Shown piece after piece: positions 5,816 through 52,947 of a stretch of DNA of 64,000 bases; positions within the stretch are counted from its first letter, which is position 1; each line of letters starts with the position of its first letter. Both the position numbers and the translations under genes were made by a program. The DNA comes from Eledone cirrhosa (Eukaryota), in NCBI GenBank assembly GCA_964016885.1, contig OZ024760.1:4836001-4900000 (forward strand), read 5' to 3'. Under the pieces are notes generated by a model that did not search any database, had not been told where the DNA came from, and saw nothing but the letters and a program-made list of their open reading frames with translations.

Positions 5816-6480
5816 AATTAAGTTAAAAGTGTACATCCACATATGTATACTGAAATACTAGTATGCATATAAATACACACACGTATACATATGTACATGT
5901 ACCGAGTTTTTCACTGGACACTTTACTGTGAGTGTCCAGCTAGTCTGTATGTAACCAAACAGACAAACCGGGTTTTAGAGTCATACAGGATTTCAAGGAA
6001 ACACCTTTCCTCTATTCTCCAGAGAGCCAGACAGGAATATTGGACTAGTTTCGATGTTATTACATCTCATCAGCAATATATACCCATCTTCCGGCTTCTC
6101 TAGAGAATCGTAAAAGCACATATCGTTATATGCTTTTTCTATGAAAATTAGTAGTGGGCAGACTAATTTGCATAGAACGTGAGTTGTACGCACCGGTTCT
6201 CTGGAGAATAGAGGAAAGGTGTTTCCTTGAAAACCCGTATGACTCAAAAACCCGGTTTGTCTGTTTGGTTACATACAGACTAGCTGGACACTCACAGTAA
6301 AGTGTCCAGTGAAAAACTTGGTACATGTACATATGTATACGTGTGTGTATTTATATGCATACTAGTATTTCAGTATACATATGTGGATGTACACTTTTAA
6401 CTTAATTGTTTAAGCGTCAGTCATACAAAAGTGAGTTACAAACGAAACGAAATTTAATTTTGTTTCGTTATTTGTTTTTA
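5816..6480. repeat. ~210-bp inverted repeat (5816-6028 / 6195-6407) with hammerhead in spacer; Penelope-like remnant
   Basis: Arms nearly identical; flanked by (TA)n tracts. Confidence 0.85.
6037..6079 (-). ncRNA. Minimal type-I hammerhead ribozyme
   Basis: atattg CTGATGA gatgt-aata-acatc GAAA ctag TC caatat: full core, stems I and II paired, palindromic stem III. Confidence 0.85.
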
Positions 6481-6924
6481 TATGTATATATATATATATA
6501 TATATATATATTTTTCTCTCTATTTTTCTCTATATTTTAATACATATATATATATATATGTATATATATATGTATATATATGTATATATATGTATATGTA
6601 TATATATGTATATATATATATATGTATATATATATATGTATATATATGTATATATATATATGTATATATATATGTATATATATATATGTATATATATATA
6701 TGTATATATATATATGTATATATATATATGTATATATATATATGTATATATATATATGTATATATATATATATATGTATATATATATGTATATATATATA
6801 TGTATATATATGTATATATATATATGTATGTATATATATGTATATATATATATGTATATATATGTATATATGTATATATATGTATATATGTATATATATG
6901 TATATATATATATATATATACATA

Positions 6925-7540
6925 TCAGGTCACCAGTTGGTGCTACTGGTAACATGTATCCCAGTACAACTTGTCCCATGGTCGGGTCGTTGGCGACTAA
7001 ACTGGCAACCCCGCCAAGGTTTCTTGGTGAGGAGGGTGACTTTGGACATCCTGCAGGACTAAAAACAAAACCTGTCAAAGGGCAAAGGAACTCTTAAGAG
7101 TCAATGGCCATCCAAAATCACTGGGAGAGATGACCCCTTAGCCTTTGTCAAGGCAGAATTCTAGGAGGAAAACTAGAAGGAAAACTCTGATATAACACCT
7201 GCAACCCTGATGGTATCCAATGATGTTGACTTGTTCTTCTTTTTGGTAAATATCATCTTGGTTAAGAGAGTGGGACTGGCTTTGTGCAGTGCCTTTGCTC
7301 ACTATAAAAGCTTCACGGCACAGGCATTGCTTTGTATCTGGAGATCTCTCTGCACTTGTCATCACAGGGTACCATGGGCCCAGCACTATGTGTCAGTAAT
7401 TGTCACAAGTGTAGTGTTTGTACCAAAGTTTTCAAGTCGCTGGCTGGACTAAAAAGTCACACTCGTTCAGCGCATCAGTAGGGGTTCTCCTACATGGATA
7501 TAAAGTAGTGGCCGTACTCGAAAACGAGTTGGCAGCCACC
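6925..7540 (+). mobile_element. ~610-bp non-coding dispersed element, copy 1
   Basis: End-to-end match to 43553-44159; both copies sit in (TA)n tracts; terminal hairpins. Confidence 0.85.
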
Positions 7541-8300
7541 ATATATATATATATGTATATATATGTATATATGTATATATATGTATATATATATATATAT
7601 GTATATATATATATATATGTATATATATGTATATATGTATATATATATATGTATATATATATGTATATATATGTATATATGTATATATATATATGTATAT
7701 ATATATATGTATATATATATATGTATATATATGTATATATGTATATGTATATATATATATGTATATATATATATGTATATATATATATATATGTATATAT
7801 ATATATATATGTATATATATATATATATGTATATATATATATGTATATATATATATATATATGTATATATATATATGTATATATATATATGTATATGTAT
7901 ATATATATATATATATATATATGTATATATATATATGTATATATATATATATATGTATATATATATATATATGTATATATATATATGTATATATATATAT
8001 ATATGTATATATATATATATATGTATATATATATATATATGTATATATATATATATAAATATATAACTTTGAATAACTTTGAAATGTTTTGGCCAGTATT
8101 GGCCCAGGCCATGTCTAACTTAATAGCACCACCTGGTATTATGTATGTATGTATATATGTATTTATTTATATATATATGTATATATATATATATATAAAT
8201 ATATATATGTATTTATTTATATATATATGTATATATATATATATATAAATATATATGTATATGTATTTATTTATAATAATATATATATGTATTTATATAT

Positions 8301-50671: not shown

Positions 50672-50957
50672 TATATGTATATATGTATATATATATGTAT
50701 ATATGTATATATATATATATGTATATATATATATATATATATATGTATATATATATGTATATATGTATGTATATATATGTGTATATATATGTATATATAT
50801 ATGTATATATATATGTATATATATATATGTATATATGTATATATATATGTATATATATATGTATATATATATGTATATATATATGTATATATGTATGTAT
50901 ATATATATATGTATATGTATATATATATATATATATATATATGTATGTATGTATGTA

Positions 50958-51511
50958 TCATAATCTATAAAGCTCAGTGTGTGGTCATGCTCCTTCGTTA
51001 TAGAAATCTACGATATAGAATTTCTTCAATTGAAATTCACAATTCAGTATTCGAAACAGCTTCGATTGCGTCAAGACGCAGATAATTTTTTCAATTTCAC
51101 CCACAATTACGCAAAAAATAGATAAAACTCAATATTTTACGATTTTTCTCTCTCATTTAAACTGCTGAACTCTTTCTACTACCATTCAAAATCTATACAA
51201 CTTCATACTTTCTGCTACTTTCTCTTTCCAAGCTTGGTGGTGATACTATCCGTTCACACCACTCCCTACTGTCTTAAATTTAGAAAACACATATCCTCTA
51301 TGAGGTTACTAAACCTGCTAGAAACAGCAGCTAAATCTCCCCCATATCACACCCCTCCCTACTGTCTTAACTGCTGGCGCAGCTCCTGCTTCCAGGTCTG
51401 CAATTCATTCACCCAGTGCGTGGCAGACAAAAAAGTGCTGCCATAAAATGGGTGGTGCAACCTAACTTTGGTAACTCAATGACCCCGAGCAACGCCGGGC
51501 TTTAATGCTAG
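50958..51511 (+). mobile_element. Non-autonomous Helitron; its first 88 bp are duplicated at 44373-44460
   Basis: A|TC start, CTAG|T end, subterminal CCCGAGCAACGCCGGG hairpin, no TSD. Confidence 0.8.
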
Positions 51512-52947
51512 TATATATATATATCTATGTATGTATGTATATATATATATGTATATATATATATATATATATATATATATATATATGTATATATATATAT
51601 TTATATATATATATTTATATATATATATATATGTATATATATATATATATATATATATATGTATATATATATGTGTATATATATATGTGTATATATATAT
51701 GTGTATATATATATGTATATATATATATATGTATATATATATATATATATATATATGTATATATATATATATATATGTATATATATATGTATATATATAT
51801 ATATATGTATATATATATATATATGTATATATATATATATGTATATATATATATATATATGTATATATATATATATATATGTATATATATATATATGTAT
51901 ATATATATATATATATGTTATATATATATATATATATATATGTATATATATATATATGTATATATATATATATGTATATATATATATATGTATATGTATA
52001 TATATATATATGTATATGTATATATATGTATATATATATATATATGTATATGTATATATATGTATATATATATATATATATATATATGTATATATATATA
52101 TATATATATATATATATATATATATATATTATTTTATCAACCCTGTAAGGATGAAAAGCAAAGTTAACCTTGGCGGGATTTGAACTCAGAATGGAAAGGG
52201 GTGTAACTCTATGCATCAAAACATAGCGTCCGACACTCTATCAATACTGGCAATCCATCGCCCTTACATATATATAAAATAAACAGTCTCGTAAAACATC
52301 ACTTGGTAGATGACAACATCATCCTTTTGTTCCAGTGATAGCTGAGAGAAAACTATCGGGAGTTGACAATTGTTTCGGAATGTCTTGCTCCTTGTCAAGA
52401 TTGTGTATTCTGCTGGAACAAAAGGACGACGTTGTCATCTACCACATGGTGTCTATGAGGCTGTTTACTTGTAAACAAATCAAATATTAATAATGTTATG
52501 ATATTATTATATTATTATGATATTATCTGAGTTCAAATCCTGCCGAGGTTAACTTTGCCTTTCATCCTTACGCGGTCGATAAAATAAAGTACCAGTAATG
52601 CACTGGGTTATTGCTGGCCTTGTGCCAAAAATAGAAACAATTATAGAGGGCGGTGGATTGGCAGTATTGGTAGAGGGTCGGACGCCATGCTTTGACGCAT
52701 AGAGTTACGGTCCTCGCCATTCTGAGTTCAAATCCCGCCGAGGTTAACTTTACCTTTCATCCTTACGGGGTCGATAAAATAAAGTACCAGTAATGCACTG
52801 GGTAATTGCTAGCCTTGTGCCAAACGTAGAAACAATTATTATAATATTATTATTCACTCACTAATACATTTAAGTATCCACCATGTTAAGAACGAAGACA
52901 AATTTTATATATATATATATATATATATGTATATATATACATATATA

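Follow-up and report, generated by a model that had tools for sequence, protein, structure and literature searches.

The 64,000-nt window of Eledone cirrhosa DNA analyzed here (contig OZ024760.1) contains ten palindromic inserts, which we assign with high confidence to several repeat families carrying the marks of Penelope-like elements (PLEs), as 5'-truncated stubs joined head to head. Nine of them, A to I, are lettered in the order in which an earlier note on this DNA listed them, and K is a tenth palindrome added in the follow-up. The layout has been described before, and the inserts, which come from several families, are clearly marked instances of an insertion structure already known from PLEs. 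What they add, all of it from ten inserts in one window, is tails about twice as long as published, strict one-sidedness of the tail, a tail fusion across families at the tail boundary, and one pair whose arms are apparently different variants. There is about an even chance that the structure arises through cutting of both strands by the element's own nuclease, after which each end is extended on element RNA from one of two start sites.

Inverted arms, TA tracts, and one-sided tails

The window has a GC content of 36.7% and is animal-type DNA holding RTE-type long interspersed nuclear elements (LINEs), pieces of a tRNA-derived short interspersed nuclear element (SINE), and other repeats. TA tracts of at least 8 nt number 425 and make up 10% of its length. 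As TA arrays swamp the detection of inverted repeats in unmasked sequence, inverted pairs were sought by a BLAST self-comparison with simple repeats masked. This yielded 15 local inverted matches (≥40 nt, ≥80%, ≤1 kb), some of them outside the nine listed inserts, whereas none was found in any of 20 block shuffles. All nine listed sites hold inverted arms, as the earlier note had claimed, with lengths of 43 to 213 nt and identities of 84 to 100%. The accompanying statement that nearly all of them adjoin (TA)n holds for both outer ends in seven of the nine (A, B, D, E, F, G, and H, with tracts of ≥8 nt) and for the left end only in C and I, the right end of C not lying at TA. On a given side, about 2% of random nonrepeat positions have such a tract within 10 nt. 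Three inserts reach beyond the bounds first given for them, with E starting at 28018, G starting at 41005, and F ending at 32556.

The pairs are not symmetric. In A, B, D, E, F, G, and H, one arm meets TA within 7 nt, while the other has extra bases first and overhangs the inverted part by 54 to 83 nt. The extra stretch before TA measures 77 nt in A, 80 in B, 77 in D, 54 in E, 75 in F, 83 in G, 69 in H, and 85 in K. It is present on one arm only in all seven informative listed inserts and in 8/8 when K is counted; C, which is chimeric, and I, which is too decayed, were excluded from this count. It lies on the right in A, B, F, and H and on the left in D, E, G, and K. A flank test gave p values of 0.002 to 0.006 per insert with a 50- to 90-nt window that was picked post hoc. 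This one-sided stretch is the published PLE "tail," which is described as 30 to 40 bp long and often present at one end only (Craig et al. 2021, PMC8557442). Tail sequences are unrelated between inserts, except that C, D, and a lone copy at 27605-27768 have theirs in common. Tails were also considered as structured RNA. Their mean z is -1.55, and 250 segments taken at random from the window average -0.14, but a comparison with 24 chunks from the bodies of these elements gave a p value of 0.056, and no structure is claimed.

The tail of C belongs to the D family. Four runs were aligned over 12040-13900, the source of the read and contig counts for B and C; one of them, X1, may come from the source of the window itself. 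In these, 7053 reads (run X7) and 97 contigs (run X1) lead from tail 13142-13220 into a D-type body, and the body of C normally continues into the AC-rich sequence of its right arm (2286 reads in X7 and 42 contigs each in X1 and X4). The left end of C is thus a rare fusion of a coding body to a D tail, and the fusion point is the same base at which the tail-less arm of D stops.

It is hardly probable at all that the palindromes are ordinary TA-targeting MITEs (miniature inverted-repeat transposable elements) or assembly fold-backs. Identical arms in three of the nine inserts (B, D, and H) would suit such an origin, as would the center of B, over which none of the contigs or read pieces listed in the four runs passes (the check covered B and C). 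The arms differ in the other six inserts, a result not expected of an assembly fold-back; for B, D, and H, the case against an artifact rests on the anatomy that they share with the other inserts. Instead of the fixed terminal inverted repeat lengths of an ordinary MITE family, arm lengths range from 25 to 213 nt and the ends are asymmetric, one arm overhanging by 54 to 85 nt, and hammerheads and a GIY-YIG remnant are present. B and C are both multicopy families. In a related organism in which C is deep, the B family has almost no depth over most of its length, a pattern which, together with the identical arms of B, is in line with the youth of B. The window does contain an element with symmetric inverted repeats at 25848-26451 (arms of about 230 to 240 nt at 78%, TTAA at both ends), which resembles an ordinary piggyBac-type MITE; it has neither a tail nor a TA flank. 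Nearby, at 24880-25347 on the minus strand, lies a 155-amino-acid (aa) frame with no Pfam match, which by eye resembles the end of a Tc1/mariner transposase. In repeat annotation, stubs such as those described here are easily misfiled as MITEs or microRNA-like hairpins, from which the one-sided tail tells them apart.

Three other palindromes were left out of the counts because their tail pattern is not clear. Those at 32183-32278 and 57421-57522 are old (80 to 86%), with loops of 11 and 2 nt and short TA runs nearby, and may be decayed members of the same kind. The third, at 63035-63078, is perfect over its 44 nt; 11 nt of an RTE end and their inverted copy enclose a TA run, and TA follows.

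Table 1. Inserts and related pieces in the window (positions within the window)
Feature	Position	Strand	Parts	Arms	Arm identity	Remarks
Insert A	5816-6484		tail-less minus arm 5816-6194, plus arm 6195-6407, 77-nt tail 6408-6484	5816-6028 / 6195-6407	97.7%	TA on both sides
Hammerhead of A	6043-6073	-				minimal type I, exact core, stem II 5 bp, stem I 6 bp, palindromic loop III
Lone hammerhead piece	11837-12188	-				between two TA tracts, without inverted copy of itself
Insert B	12213-13085		tail-less left arm 12213-12421, 80-nt tail 13006-13085	12213-12421 / 12797-13005	100%	strand from tail only
Insert C	13142-13850		D-family tail 13142-13220, minus piece 13221-13624, plus piece 13622-13850	13221-13386 / 13647-13814	92.3%	
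GIY-YIG endonuclease, C-terminal half	13323-13624	-				in insert C; frameshifted, then a stop codon
Lone piece, same family as 11837-12188	16698-16861	-				same 3' end; 5' end joined to TA via 4-nt overlap; no inverted partner
Insert D	17155-17491		tail 17155-17230, minus arm 17231-17313, tail-less plus arm 17314-17491	17231-17283 / 17439-17491	100%	
Lone D-family copy	27605-27768	-				D tail, ends at TA, without inverted partner
Insert E	28018-28322		54-nt left tail 28018-28071, 43-nt arms, 160-nt spacer	28072-28114 / 28275-28315	88.4%	
Candidate K	31491-31637		85-nt left tail, 25-nt AT-rich arms, 11-nt loop			TA on both sides; weakest case
Insert F	32300-32556		89-nt arms, 4-nt loop, 75-nt tail 32482-32556	32300-32388 / 32393-32481	92.1%	
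Hammerhead of F	32395-32453	+				complete
Insert G	41005-41214		83-nt left tail 41005-41087, 57-nt arms, 13-nt loop	41088-41144 / 41158-41214	94.7%	no independent strand marker
Insert H	43147-43346		59-nt arms, 13-nt loop, 69-nt tail 43278-43346	43147-43205 / 43219-43277	100%	
Insert I	52280-52467		77-nt spacer with minus-strand 3' half motif	52280-52335 / 52413-52467	83.9%	old pair; tail not definable

Penelope-like marks and families

The Penelope-like origin, the head-to-head join, and the outward 3' ends proposed in the earlier note are supported by a GIY-YIG remnant, hammerheads, and strand markers. The endonuclease remnant of C has 67 relatives at an E value of ≤0.001. The Pfam GIY-YIG domain (PF01541) was found in 8 of the 19 relatives scanned, in 4 of them at or above the curated cutoff, and a tblastn match (E value of 8e-16) together with a profile search places the left piece of C on the minus strand and the right piece on the plus strand. 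A CX4CxxC linker lies upstream in six of the eight relatives fetched, which end shortly after the domain, and longer relatives have, by inspection, a YVDD motif upstream; the copy in the window begins just downstream of the linker position. The 74-aa remnant itself has no Pfam match, and a word-index protein search found nothing among 31 candidates; in Atlas, it points as a lead only to unnamed clusters at 0.96 and to GIY-YIG (15% of members) at 0.91. No further GIY-YIG remnant was found in the window outside C by tblastn or profile search. The window likewise holds no PLE reverse transcriptase, only stubs from which it has been truncated away.

A strict type I hammerhead descriptor found six motifs in the window and none in each of 10 shuffles. 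They lie in A (minus), in F (plus), and in lone pieces at 11932, 16793, 25742, and 63159. All six are single, with no tandem hammerhead units among them. Hammerheads are partial in D and H, half motifs occur in E and I, and none is present in B, C, G, and K. Minimal hammerheads are reported from PLE repeats (PMC4209133), and retrozymes have been described as PLE derivatives (bioRxiv 10.64898/2026.07.22.740005). No hammerhead in the window reaches its Rfam gathering score (that of A scores 32.9 bits against HH9, under the gathering score of 52), and the only match that does is a tRNA in a SINE; Rfam microRNA matches at E values up to 5 proved to be TA repeats. In three of the eight core-bearing pieces (F right, F left, and H left), the arm stops, by inspection, 8 to 12 nt upstream of the hammerhead core.

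These markers also bear on the claim that the left piece is minus and the right piece plus, which is well supported in five of the nine listed inserts (A, F, D, H, and C), weakly in E and I, and contradicted in none; B and G cannot be assigned. The hammerhead of A lies in its 166-nt spacer, on the same strand as the tail-less arm. The hammerhead of D lies on the plus arm, with one core mismatch. The arms of H carry the 3' half of a hammerhead, and the loop completes the 5' core on the tail-less minus arm. The spacer of E has the 5' core motif of a plus-strand hammerhead only, weak evidence of strand. It counts against the Penelope-like assignment that B, G, and K have the tail as their only PLE mark.

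Two other hammerhead observations were made. A further family without a helix III loop lies at 25623-25742 on the minus strand and has lone relatives at 15434-15538, 16557-16598, and 30981-31069. At 63079-63300 (plus), a lone hammerhead with a 61-nt insert in stem II and a 7-bp stem I follows a TA tract. A 19-nt D-family pattern matched one metagenome contig, but this has 49% GC, no TA tract, and a likeness of only 24 nt, and the match was set aside as chance.

Proposed priming from both ends and its alternatives

Although the layout is known, the present inserts are of modest importance, as Craig et al. (PMC8557442) called the formation of inverted and tandem PLE structures unresolved, along with the microsatellite bias. 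Young stubs allow two-ended priming to be set against a hairpin origin by features that can be counted, namely, which arm reaches further 5', loop size, and variant arms. Under two-ended priming, the element's own endonuclease would cut both strands of a TA tract, and each 3' end would then serve as the primer for copying element RNA from one or the other of two start sites. One complex would engage both start sites, leaving one cDNA tailed and the other tail-less; both cDNAs would often stop near the same RNA 5' end, and the host would join them at a microhomology. Priming from both ends, which the earlier note had put forward, is still the leading mechanism, with the changes that the two ends start at different RNA positions, separated by the tail of 54 to 85 nt, and that they are coupled.

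Several observations favor this mechanism, among them the one-sided tail, the strict hammerheads, and the extension of both strands from two start sites shown in vitro for another PLE (PMC11167929). In A and H, and probably also in E, neither arm contains the other, as the tail-less arm extends beyond the tailed one on its 5' side. In F, all seven differences between the arms fall within 20 of 89 nt, in stem II (p = 0.00015), and each arm variant folds its own, different inner helix there, which suggests that the arms were copied from two RNA templates. Finally, four of eight inserts show a TA-type overlap of ≥3 nt with the target at the tail-less end (p = 0.002 against a background of 8%), and in B an overlap of 5 nt is also present at the tailed end. 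The overlaps at TA and at the centers (2 nt in B and 3 nt in C) fit both two-ended priming and snap-back.

In snap-back, which is quite possible although we hold it to be somewhat improbable, priming would occur once; the 3' end of the tailed cDNA would fold on a self-complementary spot and be copied into a hairpin, and the second arm would be ended or cut at the tail boundary by the endonuclease or the bound complex and only then be joined to the other TA end. This accounts for the one-sided tail (8/8) and the small loops (0, 4, 11, 13, and 13 nt) with no extra assumption. The identical arms of B, D, and H also favor it, as do the two arms of C, both of which carry alleles that are in the minority or rare among the family's reads. 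In the view of Craig et al. (PMC8557442), the tail results when the endonuclease resolves the intermediate, and the Drosophila virilis endonuclease, as cited by Frangieh et al. 2024 (PMC11167929), requires the tail for cutting. However, since the arms of A and H each hold unique sequence, self-copying of one cDNA would need a later one-sided central deletion in these inserts and probably in E and I, and conversion would be needed for the clustered differences of F. In addition, when Poseidon, a PLE of the anole (Anolis carolinensis), is assayed in vitro, both strands are extended, with synthesis starting at two sites on the RNA (PMC11167929).

Several points weigh against two-ended priming. 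Independent choice of start site would give 8/8 one-sided tails with a p value of 0.004. The centers lie ≤15 nt from symmetric in five of ten inserts (D, 0; F, 4; K, 11; G, 13; H, 13; permutation p = 0.0005), a count that takes D as a symmetric center with a deletion in one arm; with D as asymmetric, it is 4/10 (p = 0.006). Strict one-sidedness and near-symmetric centers together mean that coupling of the two ends must be assumed, whereas such centers, and the zero-loop center of D (17313/17314), are natural for snap-back. Internal arm deletions, inferred for the minus arm of D and seen in the plus piece of C (which ends in the family's own AC-rich continuation, 13815-13850), make A, E, and H explicable without two templates. 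The arm differences of F, three of seven of which are at CpG, could be due to gene conversion. At least four hammerhead pieces have no inverted partner, and the partner is thus optional. In vitro, the start site of anole Poseidon did not differ between the two strands, and its start sites lacked homology to the target (PMC11167929), in contrast to the overlaps of the present inserts. No empty site or center-spanning read was found in the read and contig check over B and C; the 15 joints listed out of 195 included none that skips either insert, and any target duplication would be hidden by TA.

A more specific form of the preferred mechanism is speculative and, in our judgment, unlikely: a PLE dimer may prime both ends of one cut in a coupled manner, with one subunit per RNA start site and with templates possibly from different RNAs. 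Different RNAs are proposed because of the arms of F and because the D tail is fused to the body of C at the tail boundary. If this is true, stubs in TA-rich genomes record the process in large numbers, which would settle the origin of PLE inverted copies, and the 54- to 85-nt tail is a clade-specific spacing between two active sites.

Self-priming on an antisense transcript, which would build the inverted structure before integration, was proposed by Arkhipova et al. 2013 (PMC3846280) for the head-to-head order, the commonest one, with its junction palindromes. D has such a palindrome, but we consider this origin very unlikely here, as variable truncation and lone copies with the same 3' end (11837/16698 and D/27605) fit target priming on sense RNA and the in vitro template is sense RNA (PMC11167929).

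The earlier note had described the inserts as retroelement-patched microsatellite breaks, meaning that fragile TA tracts break and any retroelement RNA is copied from both ends without an endonuclease. The abundance of TA tracts in the window speaks for this, as does the finding that 11 of 17 RTE LINE pieces end ≤25 nt from one. The 3' points are nevertheless shared within families (11837/16698 and D/27605), the tail offset recurs across unrelated families, and TA targeting by PLE endonucleases has been described (PMC8557442). As a control, the RTE LINE pieces include 4/17 near TA on both sides and one head-to-head neighbor pair, separated by a 75-nt TA tract, and none of the 17 is directly joined to an inverted copy of itself; the inverted layout follows the element class, not the site. 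Families that end at reproducible 3' points, a relative that has an endonuclease of its own, and the RTE control thus point to cuts made by the element, and patching of breaks is extremely unlikely.

RTE-type LINE copies with TA tracts on both sides lie at 8301-10740, 17515-17879, 52970-55940, and 62906-63047, which suggests that this class also lands in (TA)n here. An uninterrupted 1040-aa RTE-type LINE frame at 45171-48293 (minus) encodes an AP endonuclease, a reverse transcriptase, and a PHD-like finger, and its 3' end lies in (GAT)n next to TA.

Relation to known elements and other features of the window

The endonuclease-bearing PLEs (Penelope/Poseidon, Neptune, Naiad, and Hydra) resemble the inserts in most respects. 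Their insertions show strong 5' truncation, partial tandems, and an inverted 5'-truncated copy at the 5' end (PMC8557442), with a tail at one end, junction palindromes, and microhomology joins. A (TA)n insertion bias is reported for Naiad and Hydra, in which it hides target duplications, and microsatellite targeting is reported for the Neptune clade (PMC8557442). Insert B has the partial tandem, of the kind called a pseudo-long terminal repeat, in its right piece, where 12420-12535 repeats 12975-13090 exactly as a 116-nt direct repeat. The inserts differ from these PLEs in tail length (54 to 85 nt, compared with the published 30 to 40 nt and 31 nt in A. vaga) and in being stubs without reverse transcriptase from at least eight unrelated families at one locus.

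Anole Poseidon in vitro acts on AT-rich DNA, both strands of which are cut and extended, and two internal RNA start sites bound its tail; a dimer is predicted (PMC11167929). Hammerhead cleavage is dispensable in that system, and here no center lies at the hammerhead cut site (A, D, F, and H). The main text of that study gives no inverted-copy model and reports neither a strand bias in start site nor homology to the target, whereas the inserts in the window show a strictly one-sided tail and short TA overlaps. The Neptune clade, with a CX2-5CxxC linker before a C-terminal endonuclease and little sequence after it, shares the C-terminal GIY-YIG domain and the linker found in six of the eight fetched relatives of C, but the linker and reverse transcriptase are cut off in C itself, and the clade is therefore not fixed. 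Animal non-LTR retrozymes and the minimal hammerheads of PLEs are likewise type I motifs with a short, palindromic helix III in short noncoding pieces, but here no two hammerhead units stand in tandem, and the partial tandem of B has no hammerhead.

In L1, the two cDNAs copy mostly nonoverlapping parts from the poly(A) tail. The inserts differ in that both arms copy the same stretch, offset by a fixed tail. L1 twin priming (PMC2837659) is similar in that both ends of the target act as primers on element RNA and an inversion results from the joining of the cDNAs. As a cause of the PLE inverted copy, two-ended priming was not found in the literature searched, a search that most subscription papers lay beyond.

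Two further repeats were observed in the window. Two copies of a 1.6-kb segment that contains long degenerate TA arrays (6719-8280 and 43347-44869; 84% identity) lie just after inserts A and H, and 48550-50671 consists of about four head-to-tail units of 500 to 510 nt at 98% identity.

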